43,982 nucleotides of DNA from a virus: UHGV virus genome UHGV-0179801, one strand, 5' to 3'. Under the pieces are notes generated by a model. The model did no database searches and was not told where the DNA came from. It saw nothing but the letters and a program-made list of their open reading frames with translations. The first letter of the stretch is position 1. The number at the start of each line of letters is the position of its first letter. Below, in pieces: positions 3,979-41,641 of this stretch. Position numbers and translations under genes: made by a program.

Positions 3979-4242
3979 CTATTCCAGAATATTCCTCACA
4001 TAATCCTGCAACATGAACACTTTCAGTCTCAGTTGCCGTGCACATTCGGCATTCTGAACGTCGATAGCTAAATCCTCGTCCGCGTCGCTACTTGGCGGCG
4101 CCAGTTTGCACGGCGGCTGCATCATCGTCATATCCGGGGATGGAATTAGCGTTTGCGACGGCGCGGGACTTGAGCAGGACGCGAGCATCGTCGAAAGTGC
4201 ACACGCTGCGGCCAGGCGTTTTAATGTACTTAACGACTTCAC
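3979..4242 (-). CDS. o-spanin (Rz1-like outer-membrane lipoprotein)
   Basis: Signal peptide with lipobox LASC then a Pro-rich mature region; begins in the +1 frame inside the Rz-like gene and extends past its stop (overlapped spanin architecture). Confidence 0.55.
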   Translation of the reverse strand: MKSLSTLKRLAAACALSTMLASCSSPAPSQTLIPSPDMTMMQPPCKLAPPSSDADEDLAIDVQNAECARQLRLKVFMLQDYVRNILE

Positions 4243-4474
4243 GGGTAATCACCTCTGATTTCGTCTTGCCTTCGTTGTCAGCGGCTGCGGCCTTTGATTC
4301 ATCCTGCTGCTGCCGTTGTGTTTTCTTTGCTAACTCGGTCTGTGCTTTCTGCTGTTGCTGCGAAACGAGATTCGCCCGGCCTTCGTTCCAGCCGCTGCGA
4401 TATTGGTAGATGCCGTGGGCGTAAGACAGGATGATGAAACATGCTCCTGCTACGACAGTTGCTTTAAGATTCAT
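4088..4474 (-). CDS. i-spanin (Rz-like)
   Basis: N-terminal TM helix (ATVVAGACFIILSYAHGIY) followed by a charged Gln/Lys/Glu-rich periplasmic coiled-coil region; AAAGGAGAAAC RBS; contains the embedded lipoprotein ORF. Confidence 0.55.
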   Translation of the reverse strand: MNLKATVVAGACFIILSYAHGIYQYRSGWNEGRANLVSQQQQKAQTELAKKTQRQQQDESKAAAADNEGKTKSEVITREVVKYIKTPGRSVCTFDDARVLLKSRAVANANSIPGYDDDAAAVQTGAAK

Positions 4475-4793
4475 GTTTCTCCTTTCTCGATAAGTAAAGC
4501 CCCGCCATAAAGCGGGGCGCTAGTCCTTATCATTTAAACATAGAAACGGCGTAATCTCAGTAAACCAGTTACTTTTTACACAAGCAATAGATTATGGCCC
4601 TTCCGAACGCGTCAGCGTAACTACACTCAGGACTTACGTCCCGCTCCGTTACCTGCCCGCGCCGCGGTCGCTTGTTCATACTTCACAAGCTCAGGTGGAG
4701 CTTAGCACATTTTTAGTGAAAAGTCAACTATTCGAATAGTTTATTCCAAGATTTACAATTCGGTGGAATAACTGGGATACCTAACCAAATAGT

Positions 4794-4822
4794 TTGCACA
4801 CACCAATATAATAGGGTACTAT
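4794..4822 (+). promoter_or_regulatory. sigma70-like promoter TTGCAC-N17-TACTAT with AATAG-N4-CTATT inverted repeat
   Basis: Conserved 25-nt block caccaatataatagggtactattca (4801-4825), near-identical at 6608 and 40231, followed by the conserved leader tcgaaacgaggaga and an ATG. Confidence 0.55.
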
Positions 4823-4850
4823 TCATTACATCGAAACGAGGAGATGAAAA

Positions 4851-5024
4851 ATGTTCAAAGAAAAAGACATAATGCACGAAAACGGCAAATACTGGGTTCT
4901 AAATGATAAAGGAGTGTACTGCGTAATGATTTCCGGGTTTACCCACGCTAAAGCTGATAGTGCATACGCTAGTTTAGATTTAGCGATAGCCCGCTGTGAT
5001 TATCTGGCGAGTAGAGACGCATAA
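4851..5024 (+). CDS. small moron protein (57 aa), hypothetical
   Basis: ATG 4851 after the conserved promoter/leader (gaggagatgaaaaATG); opposite strand to the flanking late genes; followed by a terminator hairpin. Confidence 0.5.
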   Translation: MFKEKDIMHENGKYWVLNDKGVYCVMISGFTHAKADSAYASLDLAIARCDYLASRDA

Positions 5025-5027
5025 ACT

Positions 5028-5050
5028 AAGGCCCCGTAATGGGGCCTTTT
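5028..5050 (+). terminator. rho-independent terminator (AAGGCCCC-gtaat-GGGGCCTT-TT)
   Basis: Perfect 8-bp GC-rich stem, 5-nt loop, T-run; member of a conserved hairpin family recurring at 7183, 30767 and 42010. Confidence 0.6.
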
Positions 5051-5051
5051 A

Positions 5052-5510
5052 TCAATCTGGCTTAGTGACCTTCGCCGCCTTGCTTACCACCTCAACTCCA
5101 TCGGTATCAGTAACTTTAACGAAGTATTCGCCAGCTGCGTTAACCGACAGAGACAAAGCCTGTTCTGGTGCGTTAACCACTTCCTTACCGTCCTTGTACC
5201 AGGTCAGAGTATACGGCGCTTTACCCGCTTTAACTTCGACAGTGATAGTTGCGCTGCCGTCTGCCAGTTCGGCGTCCTGCGGTTGCACAGAGAAATACAC
5301 ATCGCCAGCATCAGCCAGATACGGAATCTCATAAAGCATACCCGCCGCCGGCAGCGCAATACCGGTTTTATCTGCAAACGGCATATCGTCTACGGGCGTA
5401 CCGAGTACACTTTCATCTTCAATAAATACCACGTTCTCGCCGGAGCCAGACACGCGGGCGTACTGGACTACGCGACGCGCGGGTACATCAGTTACTTTGA
5501 AAAAGCCCAT
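5052..5510 (-). CDS. Ig-like domain structural protein
   Basis: Track ORF; GGGGA RBS; C-terminal Ig-like signature (APYTLTWYKDGKEV ... GEYFVKVTD); downstream of the head morphogenesis gene. Confidence 0.5.
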   Translation of the reverse strand: MGFFKVTDVPARRVVQYARVSGSGENVVFIEDESVLGTPVDDMPFADKTGIALPAAGMLYEIPYLADAGDVYFSVQPQDAELADGSATITVEVKAGKAPYTLTWYKDGKEVVNAPEQALSLSVNAAGEYFVKVTDTDGVEVVSKAAKVTKPD

Positions 5511-5512
5511 CG

Positions 5513-6556
5513 TTATTCCCCTTTCAGATAATCAGCAACACGTTTATCGAGTTCCGCCATCTGCTTAAGCGTCAGCGGATTCCCGAAACCATCTACAGAT
5601 ATTACGCGAAACTCTTCCGGTGATATACCGCTGTTACGGAAAATCTTACCGCGTGTCGGCCCGAGTGCTTCATCCTGAAACCATGCCGGTTGTTGTTTCA
5701 GGAACTCGTAATAGGTTGTGTCCGCGCTTACCTGAGTTCCTCCGTCTGCACCCTTAGCCGCACGTTTTGCGCCTTTATCGAGGAAGTCGAACTCCGAGCT
5801 AATTACCGGAGCCGTGCACGACCGGCAGTTCGGATGGGCGGGGGGCATCGGCCCTTTACCAATTTCCCACGTCATCCCGTCTCTGGCTCTGCAAATCGTA
5901 CTTGTACGGCTGTCGAGGGTGGATACCCACTCGTACTTCTCGATGATGTCGTCGTTCTGACGGTACGTCTCGTTACGTGCTTCGTTGGACACGTGGGACA
6001 GCGCGGTGCGTATTACAGTAGCCGCATTGCGCTCAGAGACATCGGCCAGGCCACCCGCGCCAACAACATTCTTAACAATCTGCCGTGTGGTTTGGCCTTG
6101 TACAAATCCCATCTTAACGCCCGTTACCAGGCGCGCGACCTCCGCTTCGCCCCAGCCATCCATCAGCTTGGTGAAATCGACAGGCTTGTCACTTAGTGAC
6201 AGAGGTTGAAACTCGGCAGCGGCCCACACCTGCTCAGCGGTAGGAGTAATAAATTCTGCGTTAACATTGGTCGTCAGTGTTTTTACGTTCCACTCAGCCT
6301 CATATGCCGCCAGTTCCTTAAGGTCTTCTGTCAGCTTTGTTTGCCAGTCACCTGTAAGGCCTGCCAGTGCTTCTTCGAGGTCGCGTAACAGTTTATTCAG
6401 TCTGGCGGTGCTGCGACCGTCGTCGCCGAATAACAGCACCTGCCGTTTTATTTCGTCACGCATCTCCTGAATGAACGGTGTGAGGTCTTTCACCTCGCCG
6501 GATGCGGTGCGTTGCAGCCATATCTGGTGGCTGATTAAGGATGTAAGTAAGCTCAT
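5513..6556 (-). CDS. head morphogenesis / minor capsid protein (Mu F-like, SPP1 gp7-like)
   Basis: Motif STLDSRTSTICRARDG typical of the Mu-F/gp7 family; located after the portal gene; ATG 6556 with GGAGGG RBS preferred over the track start 6613. Confidence 0.65.
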   Translation of the reverse strand: MSLLTSLISHQIWLQRTASGEVKDLTPFIQEMRDEIKRQVLLFGDDGRSTARLNKLLRDLEEALAGLTGDWQTKLTEDLKELAAYEAEWNVKTLTTNVNAEFITPTAEQVWAAAEFQPLSLSDKPVDFTKLMDGWGEAEVARLVTGVKMGFVQGQTTRQIVKNVVGAGGLADVSERNAATVIRTALSHVSNEARNETYRQNDDIIEKYEWVSTLDSRTSTICRARDGMTWEIGKGPMPPAHPNCRSCTAPVISSEFDFLDKGAKRAAKGADGGTQVSADTTYYEFLKQQPAWFQDEALGPTRGKIFRNSGISPEEFRVISVDGFGNPLTLKQMAELDKRVADYLKGE

Positions 6557-6600
6557 ATGCCCTCCTGTAGTATCGACAGTGTAACGCATAAAAATAATAT

Positions 6601-6629
6601 TTGCAGACACCAATATAATAGGGTACTAT
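6601..6629 (+). promoter_or_regulatory. sigma70-like promoter TTGCAG-N17-TACTAT (conserved family)
   Basis: Same 25-nt block as at 4801 and 40231, followed by the conserved leader tcgaaacgaggagatgagaaATG. Confidence 0.55.
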
Positions 6630-6656
6630 TCAGTTATCGAAACGAGGAGATGAGAA

Positions 6657-7178
6657 ATGGTTACTACAGTAATTACTTTCCCTGCGTATGTAGGGGCGAA
6701 AATCTGCAGGGCGAAAAATGATGTGCGCTATTATTTGAACGCTTTTTACATAGACCCTGAAGGATTGATAGTTTCTACGGATGGTCACAGATTGTTCTGC
6801 GACAACGTGAAGACAAACGTCGAAACTGGAGTTCTAATAGACATCAAAGGGAGGGAGCCTTCTAAATTTAACTACGCGGAGGTAGACCACGACAACGGTA
6901 GTGTTTCTTTCTATGACGATAGTAGTGCGCTTGTATGTACACTTCCTATTGAAGTTGTAGACGGGAGATTTCCTTACTGGAGACGTGTGGCCGGCATTAC
7001 GCCGGGTTCAGTCGATAGCATAGGGTTCTCTCTGCGCTATTTGGCGGACGCGTACAAGATTTCTAAGGCATACAAAAATGAAATTGCCCGTTTCGATTTC
7101 CAGGACCAAACAAACGGATGCAAAATATCATTTTCAAACACTGCATTTATGGTGCTAATGCCAGCGCGATTTAAATAA
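6657..7178 (+). CDS. truncated DnaN-like (beta sliding clamp) protein, 173 aa
   Basis: Matches to recalled E. coli DnaN: NDVRYYLN (DnaN DVRYYLNG), STDGHRL (ATDGHRLA), VVDGRFPYWRRV (LVDGRFPDYRRV), SIGFSLRYLAD (EIGFNVSYVLD), C-terminal AFMVLMPARFK (AYVVMPMRL). Roughly half DnaN length; own promoter and terminator. Confidence 0.7.
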   Translation: MVTTVITFPAYVGAKICRAKNDVRYYLNAFYIDPEGLIVSTDGHRLFCDNVKTNVETGVLIDIKGREPSKFNYAEVDHDNGSVSFYDDSSALVCTLPIEVVDGRFPYWRRVAGITPGSVDSIGFSLRYLADAYKISKAYKNEIARFDFQDQTNGCKISFSNTAFMVLMPARFK

Positions 7179-7182
7179 AACT

Positions 7183-7208
7183 AAGGCCCCGAAAGGGGCC
7201 TTTTCTTT
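7183..7208 (+). terminator. rho-independent terminator (AAGGCCCC-gaaa-GGGGCCTT-TTCTTT)
   Basis: 8-bp stem, GAAA loop, T-run, directly after the stop at 7176-7178; same hairpin family as 5028. Confidence 0.6.
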
Positions 7209-8679
7209 ACTCCTGTTGCTGCTGCGCCGACTGCGGAATCTCTCCTGCTACCTGAGTAACAGCACCCAATGGCAACGGTGCATCTTCGATAGCGTTCTGA
7301 ATATCCTCGTCGGTCCAGTCGGTCACACCTGCCTTACGCAACGCCGCATAGTAAGCGGTAGCCGGTAGCAGGCCCGCGTTAATGTCCGCCATCCACTGAG
7401 CGCGGTCCTGGGCGGTCATCGGTTGCAGGAAGAACTCCATATTCAGTTTGAACTCAATCTCTGTGCCTTCACGCAGCCCAAGCATCGCCGCTACCCAGCG
7501 CAACGCATCTGTATACGCCATGCTTACATTACGTGCGATTGTCGCCATGACGGACGTATCCGCACCACGTTGCAGGCGGGCTGATTCGGCGGTGATTTGC
7601 TGCGTCGGGGTGATAAGCTGTGCGCCAATCTGAATTGCCTGATTCTCTTTATCCAGCATGTTCTGTTTGGCGAGGTTGTTCTCTCCCGCCTGAACCAGAA
7701 ACGCATTGCCGCCGTAGCCGATGTTATGGCCTGAACGAGACCCCATGCGCACGCCGTGTGGGTTAGCTTCTTTCCACTGTTCCATGCTCATGTTCTCACC
7801 TGGCGCAATGAACAGAGTGGGCTGGCCTACAACGAAGCTGGACTCCTCATTGTCCGCGCTGTTGCGGAAATGTCCGATATTAAGCTCAGCCAACGGCAGC
7901 AAAGGTGCATCATCAATGGTTGCGTCGTTGTTGCTCGCCCCAATGAACGTGAACGGTATTTTACCGCGCAGCTGTTCTCCGAGTTCCGGGAAGATTTCGA
8001 TTACGTCACCCTGAGCACCACCTTCGGCGTCGAAGCGGTAAATGCGCTGGCGGTAGCGCCCGTCAATCAAATCGAGAACGCGGTATTGTTCGCCGAATTT
8101 TGTTTCGAACTCCGCGCCCGGTTCTGAGTATTCCCACACCTCACGCAGCACGACCGTTGTCACACGGTTAACAGAACCGATGCGTGTCAGTCGCCAGTTG
8201 ATGATGTTCTCTGCGGTATAGAATGCGATTACCGGGTTTAATAACCCCGCGTTCTGCTCTGCCGCCGTTGCCGCGGCTGTCTCTGGGGCGTCCACCAGCA
8301 ACCCGCCGCGGCCAACCGAGTCAATCTCCATCAGCGTGTCCTGCGCGTGCTGCCACAACCCGACACCAGAACCGTCGGCATTACGTAACAGGTACTCCAG
8401 TTCAGGCGGGATAATTTGCTCGGGGTCTTTACGCATCACTGACCCCACCATCCCGGCCAGAGTACGTTTGGTGAAGTTGTAGCAGATAGCGCCGTTCTCG
8501 TATTCTTCCTGGCGCTGCGCAGCGTAGGTAGGCTCCGGCTCGTTCTTCCCGACGTTGCGAAGATAGCGGATAAGGTCGCCTTCCAGCGCGTGGCGTACCT
8601 TCTGCCATTTATCGAAGTGATGCAGCCATTCCCGGTGTTTTGTTTTAACACCCTGATTCTGACCGTTCATAGTTAACAT
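7207..8679 (-). CDS. portal protein
   Basis: 490-aa ORF immediately downstream of the large terminase gene; AGAGGA RBS; size and position typical of a portal. Confidence 0.7.
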   Translation of the reverse strand: MLTMNGQNQGVKTKHREWLHHFDKWQKVRHALEGDLIRYLRNVGKNEPEPTYAAQRQEEYENGAICYNFTKRTLAGMVGSVMRKDPEQIIPPELEYLLRNADGSGVGLWQHAQDTLMEIDSVGRGGLLVDAPETAAATAAEQNAGLLNPVIAFYTAENIINWRLTRIGSVNRVTTVVLREVWEYSEPGAEFETKFGEQYRVLDLIDGRYRQRIYRFDAEGGAQGDVIEIFPELGEQLRGKIPFTFIGASNNDATIDDAPLLPLAELNIGHFRNSADNEESSFVVGQPTLFIAPGENMSMEQWKEANPHGVRMGSRSGHNIGYGGNAFLVQAGENNLAKQNMLDKENQAIQIGAQLITPTQQITAESARLQRGADTSVMATIARNVSMAYTDALRWVAAMLGLREGTEIEFKLNMEFFLQPMTAQDRAQWMADINAGLLPATAYYAALRKAGVTDWTDEDIQNAIEDAPLPLGAVTQVAGEIPQSAQQQQE

Positions 8680-16848: not shown

Positions 16849-16879
16849 CTTCTGTCTCTCCTCTCGTTTGTGCAAATGA

Positions 16880-16908
16880 ATAGTAACCTATTCTATCCCA
16901 GTGAGCAA
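16880..16908 (-). promoter_or_regulatory. sigma70-like promoter TTGCTC-N17-TACTAT (minus strand) with AATAG-N4-CTATT repeat
   Basis: Minus-sense reads TTGCTC-17 nt-TACTAT then the conserved leader and an ATG; inverted repeat at 16879-16892. Confidence 0.5.
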
Positions 16909-18023: not shown

Positions 18024-18056
18024 CTTTAAATTCCTTATGTCTCGTTGCTATAAGTG

Positions 18057-18086
18057 AATAGTATCCTATTATATTGGTGTGTGCAA
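18057..18086 (-). promoter_or_regulatory. sigma70-like promoter TTGCAC-N17-TACTAT (minus strand)
   Basis: Reverse complement of 18054-18086 is ttgcacacaccaatataataggatactattcac, the same conserved block as at 4794, 6601 and 40223. Confidence 0.55.
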
Positions 18087-21815: not shown

Positions 21816-21840
21816 TGTGAATAGTACCATATTAATTATT
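21816..21840 (-). promoter_or_regulatory. promoter/operator for the XRE gene (TGnTACTAT extended -10, degenerate AATAG-N4-ATATT repeat)
   Basis: Minus-sense aattaatatggTACTATtcac about 25 nt upstream of the XRE start; shares the tgaatagt core with the other promoters. Confidence 0.45.
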
Positions 21841-21853
21841 TTAGAAAAGCCCA

Positions 21854-21882
21854 TTGACATCATGAATAGTTCGCTATTATAG
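21854..21882 (+). promoter_or_regulatory. sigma70-like promoter TTGACA-N15/17-TATTAT/TTATAG with AATAG-TTCG-CTATT repeat
   Basis: Consensus -35 TTGACA; inverted repeat 21865-21878 overlaps the -10; followed by leader ccaaacgagaggagagacaaaATG. Confidence 0.55.
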
Positions 21883-24421: not shown

Positions 24422-24447
24422 TTGACACCTGAATAGTTAGCTATTAT
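24422..24447 (+). promoter_or_regulatory. sigma70-like promoter TTGACA-N14/17-TATTAT/TATATT with AATAG-TTAG-CTATT repeat
   Basis: gttgacacctgaatagttagctattatattc upstream of the SSB-like gene. Confidence 0.55.
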
Positions 24448-40222: not shown

Positions 40223-40251
40223 TTGCACACCCCAATATAATAGGGTACTAT
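40223..40251 (+). promoter_or_regulatory. sigma70-like promoter TTGCAC-N17-TACTAT (conserved family)
   Basis: acttgcacaccccaatataatagggtactattca, the same block as at 4794 and 6601. Confidence 0.55.
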
Positions 40252-40281
40252 TCACTTACACCAACAATGGAGGAGTTTAAA

Positions 40282-40473
40282 ATGTCAAGTTTACCAGTTT
40301 CCTTAATTCTGTTTGCACTACTCGCTTATTTTGCGCCTTTCCTGGTTGCATATTTCCGCAACCATAAAGCGAAGTTAGCGATATTCATGGCTAACCTGTT
40401 TCTTGGCTGGATTCTGCTGCCGTGGGTATTTATTTTAATCTGGGCTTGCAACTCGAATGTCAAAGAGAAGTGA
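40282..40473 (+). CDS. small membrane protein (63 aa)
   Basis: ATG 40282 after GGAGGAG RBS; two hydrophobic helices (LPVSLILFALLAYFAPFLVAYF, LFLGWILLPWVFILIWA). Confidence 0.5.
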   Translation: MSSLPVSLILFALLAYFAPFLVAYFRNHKAKLAIFMANLFLGWILLPWVFILIWACNSNVKEK

Positions 40474-40510: not shown

Positions 40511-41641
40511 ATGGCCAGGAAGAAAATAACCGACGAACAGTTGCAGGAAGAATTGAACGCCGGTATGAAGAATATCGACATCGCTCGTAAATACGGCATC
40601 TCAGACCGCGTTATTCGCATCCGTAAAGCGAAGCTGGCAAAGAAAGGCGTAGGTCATGGGCGCGACGTTAGCCACCTTGTGCCAGATGGCTACAAGATTA
40701 AAGGAACGTCGTCACTTGTCGATGAGTTCGGCAACACTAAATTGCAATGGGTTAAGACCGACACCGATGCTGAACGTCAGGTTGAACTGATGAAAGCCGT
40801 GGTTGAAGGTATGAAGTCAGAGATTACCCCGGTTGCGCCTGTTAAAGCGACTCGAGCCAAACGTGACGATAAACTGCTCAATCTTTACACTGTGTCTGAT
40901 TTCCATCTCGGTATGCTTGCATGGGCCGACGAGAGTGGCGACGACTGGGACATGAAGATTGCAGAAGACCTGTTCTCTCGCTGGTTCGACGCAGCGTTTC
41001 AGAAAGCGCCGGACGCAGGAACGGGCGTTATTAACCTGCTTGGTGACCTTGCGCACTTCGATAGTCTGGATGCCGTTACGCCGGCAAGCGGTCATGTTCT
41101 TGACGCAGACACGCGCTATCAGAAACTGGTCCGCTACATGATTCGTATGGTCCGCCGTGTCGTTGATATGGCCCTTGTTAAGCATAAAAATGTTCGCTTG
41201 CTTATTGTGCAAGGGAACCACGACGAGAGTGGCATGATTTGGCTGGCTGAGATGTTCAGTACGCTATACGACAACGAGCCGCGTGTGTTCGTCGATACGT
41301 CACCGGATGTTTACAAGATGGCGCGACACGGCAAAACAACGTTGTTCTTTCACCATGGACATAAAGCACGCTTCGACGCTATCGAGCCGGTTATGATTGC
41401 CAAGTTCCGCAAAGCGTTCGGCGAGAGTGTTTACAGCTACGCTCACGTAGGGCACCTGCACCATCAGAAGATTGTAGAAAGCCGTAACATGATTGTTGAG
41501 CAGCACCGCACTTTAGCGGCTAAAGATGCCTACGCCTCCCGCGGCGGATGGATGTCAGGCCGTAGTGCAAACGTAATTACTTATAGCGCCGAATATGGCG
41601 AGGTCGCGCGTTTAACTATTTCACCGGAGATGCTGGGATGA
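40511..41641 (+). CDS. HTH domain fused to calcineurin-like metallophosphoesterase
   Basis: N-terminal HTH-like NIDIARKYGISDRVIRIRKAK; phosphoesterase motifs VSDFHLG, GDLAHFD, GNHDE, HHGH, GHLHH. Confidence 0.65.
   Translation: MARKKITDEQLQEELNAGMKNIDIARKYGISDRVIRIRKAKLAKKGVGHGRDVSHLVPDGYKIKGTSSLVDEFGNTKLQWVKTDTDAERQVELMKAVVEGMKSEITPVAPVKATRAKRDDKLLNLYTVSDFHLGMLAWADESGDDWDMKIAEDLFSRWFDAAFQKAPDAGTGVINLLGDLAHFDSLDAVTPASGHVLDADTRYQKLVRYMIRMVRRVVDMALVKHKNVRLLIVQGNHDESGMIWLAEMFSTLYDNEPRVFVDTSPDVYKMARHGKTTLFFHHGHKARFDAIEPVMIAKFRKAFGESVYSYAHVGHLHHQKIVESRNMIVEQHRTLAAKDAYASRGGWMSGRSANVITYSAEYGEVARLTISPEMLG

Follow-up and report, generated by a model that had tools for sequence, protein, structure and literature searches.

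When two small genes of one phage sit behind nearly the same promoter and leader, do their products belong together? The question is raised by an open reading frame (ORF) of 57 amino acids (aa) at positions 4851-5024 of the virus genome UHGV-0179801, of which the whole analysed stretch of 43,982 nucleotides (nt) is referred to here as the window. The window represents a Kagunavirus-like phage (Guernseyvirinae), and the flanks of 4851-5024 match 181-189 siphophage records, belonging to Kagunavirus (E. coli) and Jerseyvirus (Salmonella), at 85-96% identity. The 57-aa ORF lies antisense within the string of structural genes, between the minus-strand genes for a spanin and a head decoration protein. 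The second gene, a DnaN-domain-like ORF of 173 aa that we call the mini-clamp, starts 1.63 kilobases (kb) past its stop. The initial annotation had described this arrangement, with the 57-aa ORF antisense in the late operon and about 1.6 kb from the DnaN-like gene, and the ORF list, the neighbouring genes and the measured distance agree with it. By comparing related genomes, we found that the 57-aa gene is very likely the cargo of a moron-type accessory cassette, which assorts independently of the mini-clamp.

A constant frame and its exchangeable cargo

Two gaps between late genes are concerned: slot A, between the Rz-like and Hoc-like genes, and slot B, between the MuF-like and portal genes. 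The metagenomic Kagunavirus contigs L012-L015 and L018-L023 carry the 57-aa gene at 86-96% identity. The contents of the two slots in the window, in these contigs and in other relatives are as follows:

This window: slot A, 57-aa gene; slot B, mini-clamp
L012-L015: slot A, 57-aa gene; slot B, empty (70-nt gap)
L018-L021: slot A, empty; slot B, 57-aa gene
L023: slot A, mini-clamp; slot B, 57-aa gene
L022: slot A, 57-aa gene; slot B, Vut_1-like membrane protein and a 244-aa ORF
fEg-Eco19 and fFiEco03: slot A, mini-clamp, annotated 'possible moron'
Salmonella phage S100: slot A, adenine methyltransferase
LSPA1 and PK1: slot A, endonuclease VII
K1G and K1ind1: slot A, nothing
Further relatives: slot A, other small ORFs
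Slot B of relatives: mostly empty, otherwise mini-clamp, amidase, ADP-ribosyltransferase or other ORFs

In the relatives, homology to the window extends through promoter and leader as far as the ATG (query end 354-356), beyond which the sequence varies by phage. When the slot-B copy of L018 is compared with the slot-A copy of the window, homology runs from TTTGCA at the -35 position to the terminator hairpin, and beyond these limits each copy is surrounded by the flanks of its own slot. Empty slots retain the GCCCCTTTCGGGGC hairpin and lack the promoter. The 57-aa gene itself was found in none of the approximately 180-190 GenBank relatives that have the same slot, and in no GenBank Kagunavirus record. 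Among the relatives, the cargo between the ATG and the terminator is replaced, lost or moved between slots. The 57-aa gene and the mini-clamp are alternative cargos and not partners, since they assort independently and replace each other in the same slot. The breakpoints suggest that cargo is exchanged by homologous recombination within the frame.

A different type of cargo is seen in L022, where the frame at slot B (5969-7164) contains a gene for a Vut_1/YhhQ-like membrane protein (154 aa, E 2.5e-9) and the 244-aa ORF, for which no family was found.

The two cassettes of the window consist of the following parts:

4794-4799, plus strand: -35-like hexamer TTGCAC, 17 nt upstream of TACTAT, conserved in five motif copies
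4803-4825, plus strand: predicted promoter core CCAATATAATAGGGTACTATTCA, 23 nt, with exact copies at 4803, 6610 and 40232
4838-4843, plus strand: Shine-Dalgarno sequence GAGGAG, 7 nt ahead of the ATG and the same in the mini-clamp leader
4851-5024, plus strand: 57-aa ORF with an ATG start, translated as in the initial annotation; phrog_20712 (SP6 gp1 family)
5028-5048, plus strand: terminator-like hairpin AAGGCCCC-GTAAT-GGGGCCTT followed by TTAT, in the 27-nt gap between the 57-aa stop and the Hoc-like stop
6601-6629, plus strand: second promoter copy (TTGCAG, 17-nt spacer, TACTAT), heading the mini-clamp cassette
6657-7178, plus strand: mini-clamp ORF, 173 aa, DnaN-domain-like, cargo of slot B; phrog_3007 at 1e-35
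7183-7202, plus strand: hairpin of the slot-B cassette, flagged by the terminator scan on both strands

The slot-A cassette occupies about 255 base pairs (bp) and comprises a predicted promoter, a strong ribosome-binding site, a small ORF and a putative hairpin terminator. Its hairpin, with a GC-rich 8-bp stem and a T-rich tail, lies 4 nt past the stop of the 57-aa ORF and shares repeat family D4 with 7178-7204; AAACTAAGGCCCCg.aa.GGGGCCTTT hairpins are found a few bases 3' of both the 57-aa and the mini-clamp ORFs. The GC content is 41% in the slot-A cassette and 43% in the slot-B cassette, compared to 52-56% in the flanks. The slot-A value of 41.3%, compared with 52-54% for the flanking genes and 50.6% for the whole window, belongs to the lowest 6% of same-size windows.

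A moron is defined as a gene added to a phage genome that brings its own promoter and terminator and deviates in GC content (PMC3594210), and the cassette fits this definition because it has the anatomy of an independent unit and is GC-poor relative to its flanks. Moreover, the site between conserved genes is empty (K1G, K1ind1, L018) or differently filled (fEg-Eco19, S100, LSPA1) in close relatives. The lambdoid morons, of which the HK97 gene 15 element is an example, were defined by Juhala and Hendrix and are reviewed in PMC3594210. Like them, the cassette adds one gene under its own promoter and terminator (here predicted), is placed between conserved late genes, is missing from close relatives and differs in GC content. 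Unlike them, it runs antisense to the late genes, it carries the phage's own repeated promoter rather than a foreign one, and the one frame recurs at two slots, between which cargo moves. Expression from a repressed prophage, a further feature of morons, probably does not apply here, because no integrase was noticed in the examined parts of the window (no systematic search for one was made) and the relatives are described as virulent, a lifestyle ascribed to Guernseyvirinae relatives in PMC7203180 and PMC11990801.

Parts of this picture were already known: the GenBank annotators of fEg-Eco19 marked the mini-clamp in slot A as a possible moron, and the repeated promoter motif has been published (PMC9825357). 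What our comparison adds is modestly new, namely that the same gene is seen at one slot or the other, enclosed each time by a constant promoter-to-terminator frame, and that this cargo comes from a large uncharacterised family that includes SP6 gp1. The slots constitute two hot spots of accessory-gene exchange in Kagunavirus and Jerseyvirus genomes, with methyltransferases, an ADP-ribosyltransferase, endonuclease VII, the mini-clamp and the 57-aa gene as cargos. They are natural places to search for counter-defence genes and convenient engineering sites for therapeutic phages.

The minus-strand genes neighbouring the cassettes, which also include the large terminase gene, and the non-coding stretch to the left of the slot-A promoter are:

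4088-4474, minus strand: Rz-like spanin
4475-4790, no strand assigned: conserved non-coding stretch of 316 nt, left of the cassette promoter
5052-5510, minus strand: Hoc-like head decoration protein
5513-6556, minus strand: MuF-like head morphogenesis protein
7207-8679, minus strand: portal

The non-coding stretch is 93-96% identical in 181 phage records of Kagunavirus and Jerseyvirus and is kept whether slot A is filled or empty, as in the empty slot of L018. On either strand, its predicted folding is stronger than that of shuffled sequence (z -2.8 and -3.4). An Rfam scan of 4400-5100 returned a single chance-level match and no family for 4475-4790. Within the stretch, a terminator-like hairpin was noted on the minus strand at 4518-4499, 25 nt ahead of the Rz start codon.

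Some further variation was seen in the same gene string. The MuF-like gene of L018-L021 (1539-3398, minus strand) encodes 619 aa, compared to 347 aa in the window, and matches the intein splicing domain PF14890. In Salmonella phage FSL SP-031 (Cornellvirus; L003 2501-2680), a homologue of the 57-aa gene occupies a third antisense slot, between the scaffold-like gene and the spanin region, and a different plus-strand gene fills the slot beside the Hoc-like gene. An HNH homing endonuclease lies between the spanin region and the scaffold-like gene in two other loci (L001 1626-2132 and L016 417-923), marking a further variable site; the one in L016 has a weak AP2-domain match.

A promoter motif repeated across the genome

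From TTTGCA to the ATG, the upstream regions of the 57-aa and mini-clamp genes differ by 4 mismatches and 1 indel in 61 nt and agree at about 56 positions, which bears out the near-identity of promoter and leader reported in the initial annotation. CCAATATAATAGGGTACTATTCA is found exactly upstream of both genes, with a chance expectation of 0.00 matches. The promoter-like motif, made up of the -35 hexamer, a 17-nt spacer and the -10 hexamer, lies 28 nt ahead of the ATG of the 57-aa ORF. The core at 4803-4825 encompasses TATAAT (4807-4812), the palindrome AATAG-GGTA-CTATT (4810-4823) and the -10-like hexamer TACTAT (4817-4822).

The same core recurs exactly at 40232 on the plus strand and with one mismatch at 18077-18055 on the minus strand. 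Its 18-nt form, ATAATAGGGTACTATTCA, has eight copies with up to 3 mismatches in the window, compared to 0.01 expected. In five copies, TTGCA precedes TACTAT by exactly 17 nt, and a Shine-Dalgarno sequence and an ATG follow within 20-30 nt. Apart from those of the two cassettes, these copies and the genes that follow the third one are:

40223-40251, plus strand: third promoter copy, heading an operon of the Imm_superinfect-like gene, the exonuclease and following genes
40282-40473, plus strand: 63-aa membrane protein, the first gene after the third promoter (Imm_superinfect PF14373, E 1.3e-12)
40511-41641, plus strand: DNA repair exonuclease, after the Imm_superinfect-like gene
18058-18086, minus strand: fourth promoter copy, heading a 72-aa ORF (18023-17805) and a leftward string of small genes
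16877-16894, minus strand: fifth promoter copy, with TTGC upstream and a Shine-Dalgarno sequence and ATG downstream

Long strings of early and replication genes are headed by two of the five complete copies. Because the core and motif recur at these sites, with eight copies in all, the shared promoter is a genome-wide element and constitutes no private link between the 57-aa gene and the mini-clamp.

Across all eight copies, conservation of the motif is highest in the palindrome AATAG-N4-CTATT, which overlaps the -10 box. It is located at 4810-4823, 6617-6630 and 40239-40252 in the plus-strand copies; the minus-strand motif sites are 16877-16894, 18055-18072, 21818-21835, 21863-21880 and 24430-24447. 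The palindrome is also kept in the three copies that lack the TTGCA -35 box, and its sequence suggests a binding site for a dimeric regulator. The 57-aa protein was considered as this regulator and rejected, as about 180 relatives keep the promoter and do not have the gene.

In fBC-Eco01 (Kagunavirus), a repeated 'phage promoter' with the consensus tgAATAGTa-ccTATTat-T was described in seven copies (PMC9825357). This consensus is the reverse complement of the ATAATAGGGTACTATTCA core of the window, where it is present in eight. The same study assigns the motif to a phage-encoded RNA polymerase; no sign of such an enzyme was seen in the examined parts of the window, where no systematic search for it was made.

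Family, structure and possible role of the 57-aa protein

The 57-aa gene is real and under purifying selection, with a ratio of nonsynonymous to synonymous substitution rates (dN/dS) of about 0.1 (range 0.06-0.2) and a dS of up to 0.69 among the Kagunavirus copies. Sensitive homology searching, a check proposed in the initial annotation, yielded a full-length match to phrog_20712 (E 2.9e-26), in which residues 1-54 align with positions 2-56 of the 60-position profile. A tblastn search showed 68% identity to a member of this family, SP6 gp1 (gene 0.2), which is of the same size and homologous over its whole length. SP6 gp1 is the first gene of the left end transcribed by the host polymerase, whereas here the gene forms an isolated cassette in the structural module. 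Homologues at 45-72% identity are found in Webervirus, SP6, Cornellvirus, BPP-1 and in Ralstonia, Yersinia and Variovorax phages. A profile search retrieved 553 clusters (at 50% identity) at E<=1e-3, of which 245 reached E<=1e-10, and most of them are stand-alone proteins of 57-100 aa. Large and strongly conserved, and with the first gene of a model phage (SP6) among its members, the family offers functional screens an inexpensive and well-defined target; the searched literature holds no functional data for the gene or for SP6 gp1.

Structure prediction, suggested alongside the homology search, was carried out with AlphaFold2 and 22 homologues, and gave a model of four antiparallel strands and a C-terminal helix with a predicted local distance difference test (pLDDT) score of 90. 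Among 175 cluster representatives, the near-invariant positions are mostly core residues (I7, V25, A45, W15 and Y51). H9, H32 and C49 are conserved in 70%, 78% and 77% of them, respectively; we considered these residues as a zinc or catalytic site and rejected this assignment, given a conservation of only 70-78%. The net charge of the protein is about -0.6 +/- 1.8, and because this is close to neutral, it is set apart from acidic DNA mimics and from typical basic DNA binders alike. The protein is predicted to be a cytoplasmic, near-neutral domain without invariant residues of a catalytic type.

We then compared the genomic contexts of the homologues. The family spans phages, prophages and conjugative plasmids of Proteobacteria. 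The left end of SP6 opens with gp1, and the ocr-like gp5 comes four genes later. The homologue of the Webervirus NJS1, a Klebsiella phage, belongs to a left-end cluster of small genes, and that of BPP-1 lies between the polymerase and helicase genes. A search of 37 viral loci did not reveal a conserved neighbour. ArdA follows the homologue at a distance of 345 nt in a T7-like prophage of Agrobacterium. A Phycisphaerales genome (L063 3292-4402) has genes for an ArdC-N-like protein, a DUF3560 protein and an MTS/NPPF methyltransferase followed directly by the homologue, with a serine recombinase nearby. In the protein P0110, the 57-aa domain is fused to an MTS/NPPF-type methyltransferase, and the Phycisphaerales methyltransferase is homologous to the C-terminal part of P0110 (31% identity, E 5e-17).

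Plasmids provide a further group of contexts. The domain was found on 36 of them (Providencia, Proteus, Morganella, Moellerella and Paraburkholderia), 33 of which are conjugative. On a Burkholderia plasmid, a DUF3560 gene lies near the homologue. On the one plasmid examined in detail, from Providencia rettgeri (NZ_CP098041.1; L062 9001-9432), the domain forms the N-terminus of a 143-aa protein and stands in a same-strand array with a DNA cytosine methyltransferase, an ASCH protein and an HNH endonuclease. A scan of genome contigs for the domain gave four loci only, too few for enrichment statistics. Overall, homologues occupy early or replication regions and are several times adjacent to anti-restriction genes. 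The neighbours in the prophage, the Phycisphaerales genome and the plasmids (ArdA, ArdC-N-like proteins, DUF3560 and methyltransferases) hint at a link to anti-restriction.

Ocr, ArdA and the genes of plasmid leading regions offer the closest comparison. Like them, the 57-aa gene encodes a small protein that would be made early, its homologues adjoin ArdA, ArdC-N-like, DUF3560 and orphan methyltransferase genes, and they are also carried by conjugative plasmids. In contrast to Ocr, ArdA and ArdC, the 57-aa protein is not acidic as DNA mimics are and resembles them in neither sequence nor fold. No sequence or profile match to the ArdA, ArdC or Ocr families was obtained, and the association is one of neighbourhood only. 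From the contexts of the homologues, we tentatively suggest a role in counter-defence or establishment, to which we give somewhat less than an even chance.

These elements can be combined into the following proposal. The cassette is inserted antisense between two late structural genes of a virulent siphophage, with a constant frame, consisting of the promoter, the leader as far as the ATG and the terminator, at slots A (Rz/Hoc-like) and B (MuF/portal). Host RNA polymerase would transcribe it at an early or middle stage, since the same promoter heads strings of small, replication and recombination genes, and the palindrome in the promoter would probably serve as a regulator site. Cargo would be exchanged by homologous recombination within the frame. 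The 57-aa protein may be made soon after DNA entry and bind a conserved host protein, and this binding could lead to host takeover or anti-defence. A more far-reaching reading is that Guernseyvirinae phages maintain this frame at fixed slots of the structural module as an integrase-free cassette-exchange system for counter-defence cargo, with the SP6 gp1 family as a new, widespread anti-defence or establishment factor common to phages, prophages and conjugative plasmids; this wider reading we consider rather doubtful.

Several observations weigh against the proposal outlined above. No constant neighbour emerged in 26 non-redundant viral loci, where primase/helicase and terminase genes, and not anti-defence genes, are the commonest. 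The function is assigned by guilt by association, and no Pfam or NCBIfam family and no PDB-sequence match was found for the 57-aa protein, even at E<=1-10. TTGCAC agrees with TTGACA at three of six positions, and both hexamers together with the sigma-70 consensus at seven of twelve. The consensus promoter scan did not flag the cassette hexamers, nor did the terminator scan flag the slot-A hairpin at 5028-5048. Recombination through the frame is deduced from breakpoints. Finally, the promoter activity and timing of the cassette are only predicted, because the searched literature holds no expression or transcript data for this phage group, the gene or Guernseyvirinae promoters.

The 57-aa protein could instead be a replication-associated, nucleic-acid-binding module with a fold of the AP2 or lambda-Int N-terminal type, acting on DNA during the replication stage and not on host defence. 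AP2 domains (scores of 5.5-5.6) and the DNA-binding domain of lambda Int (4.8) do appear among its structural matches. These matches are weak, however, the top ones being partial PH/PTB domains, and Foldseek searches against the PDB and BFVD found only members of the family itself or insignificant matches (best E 0.29). There is no sequence similarity, the near-neutral charge differs from that of typical basic DNA binders, and no replication gene is a constant neighbour. We regard this explanation as unlikely.

The mini-clamp and the question of partnership

In the initial annotation, co-regulation was taken to mean that the two products act together or at the same stage of infection. The second of these is reasonable: the two genes probably share their timing, as they have the same promoter and leader, although at least three other transcription units have that promoter as well. 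The first is contradicted by the comparative data. A co-regulated functional pair, in which the 57-aa protein would be, for instance, a clamp-associated factor, might be read from the near-identical promoter, leader and terminator of the two genes, from their joint presence in L023, and from a 48-kb viral contig (L053 3950-5278) that encodes the 57-aa domain and a full-length DnaN-like clamp (about 354 aa) as one in-frame fusion.

Against this, the genes are repeatedly found apart. The 57-aa gene is present without the mini-clamp in L012-L015 and L018-L021, as well as in Klebsiella phage NJS1, whose complete genome encodes the homologue and no mini-clamp anywhere. Conversely, the mini-clamp occurs without the 57-aa gene in all GenBank Kagunavirus records. 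The 57-aa family is also found in Ralstonia (9 records) and Bordetella (5 records) phages, and these genera contribute at most two records each to the mini-clamp matches. In L023, the slots are swapped, and each gene is able to occupy the slot of the other. As for the fused protein, the orthologues of its clamp in Paraburkholderia-type prophages (L059-L061) have no 57-aa homologue upstream, and for this reason we treated the fusion as a one-off and dropped it as a Rosetta-stone link; nor is the clamp of L053 detectably related to the mini-clamp (blastp E 0.03). Independent assortment largely refutes a functional pair, which we judge very improbable. It is tempting to infer a functional partnership from the shared promoter, but in this phage group such sharing reflects an expression frame that is reused.

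A non-coding origin of the 57-aa ORF by chance, with the repeat serving only as a promoter/terminator pair for antisense regulation of the late operon, would suit its shortness, its antisense position and the lack of a Pfam or NCBIfam family, but is already refuted, to near certainty, by the conservation pattern: the low dN/dS, the homologues at 45-72% identity in unrelated phages, the 553 clusters, the confident structural model and the strong Shine-Dalgarno sequence.

The mini-clamp itself is present at >=80% identity in 23 GenBank phage records. It has weak matches to DnaN in Pfam (E 0.02), TIGR00663 (E 0.0035) and phrog_947 (4.6e-9). The family to which it was assigned, phrog_3007, bears the label 'RusA-like Holliday junction resolvase', yet the weak Pfam, NCBIfam and phrog_947 matches of the mini-clamp are all to DnaN or processivity factors, and judging from these matches the label is probably wrong.
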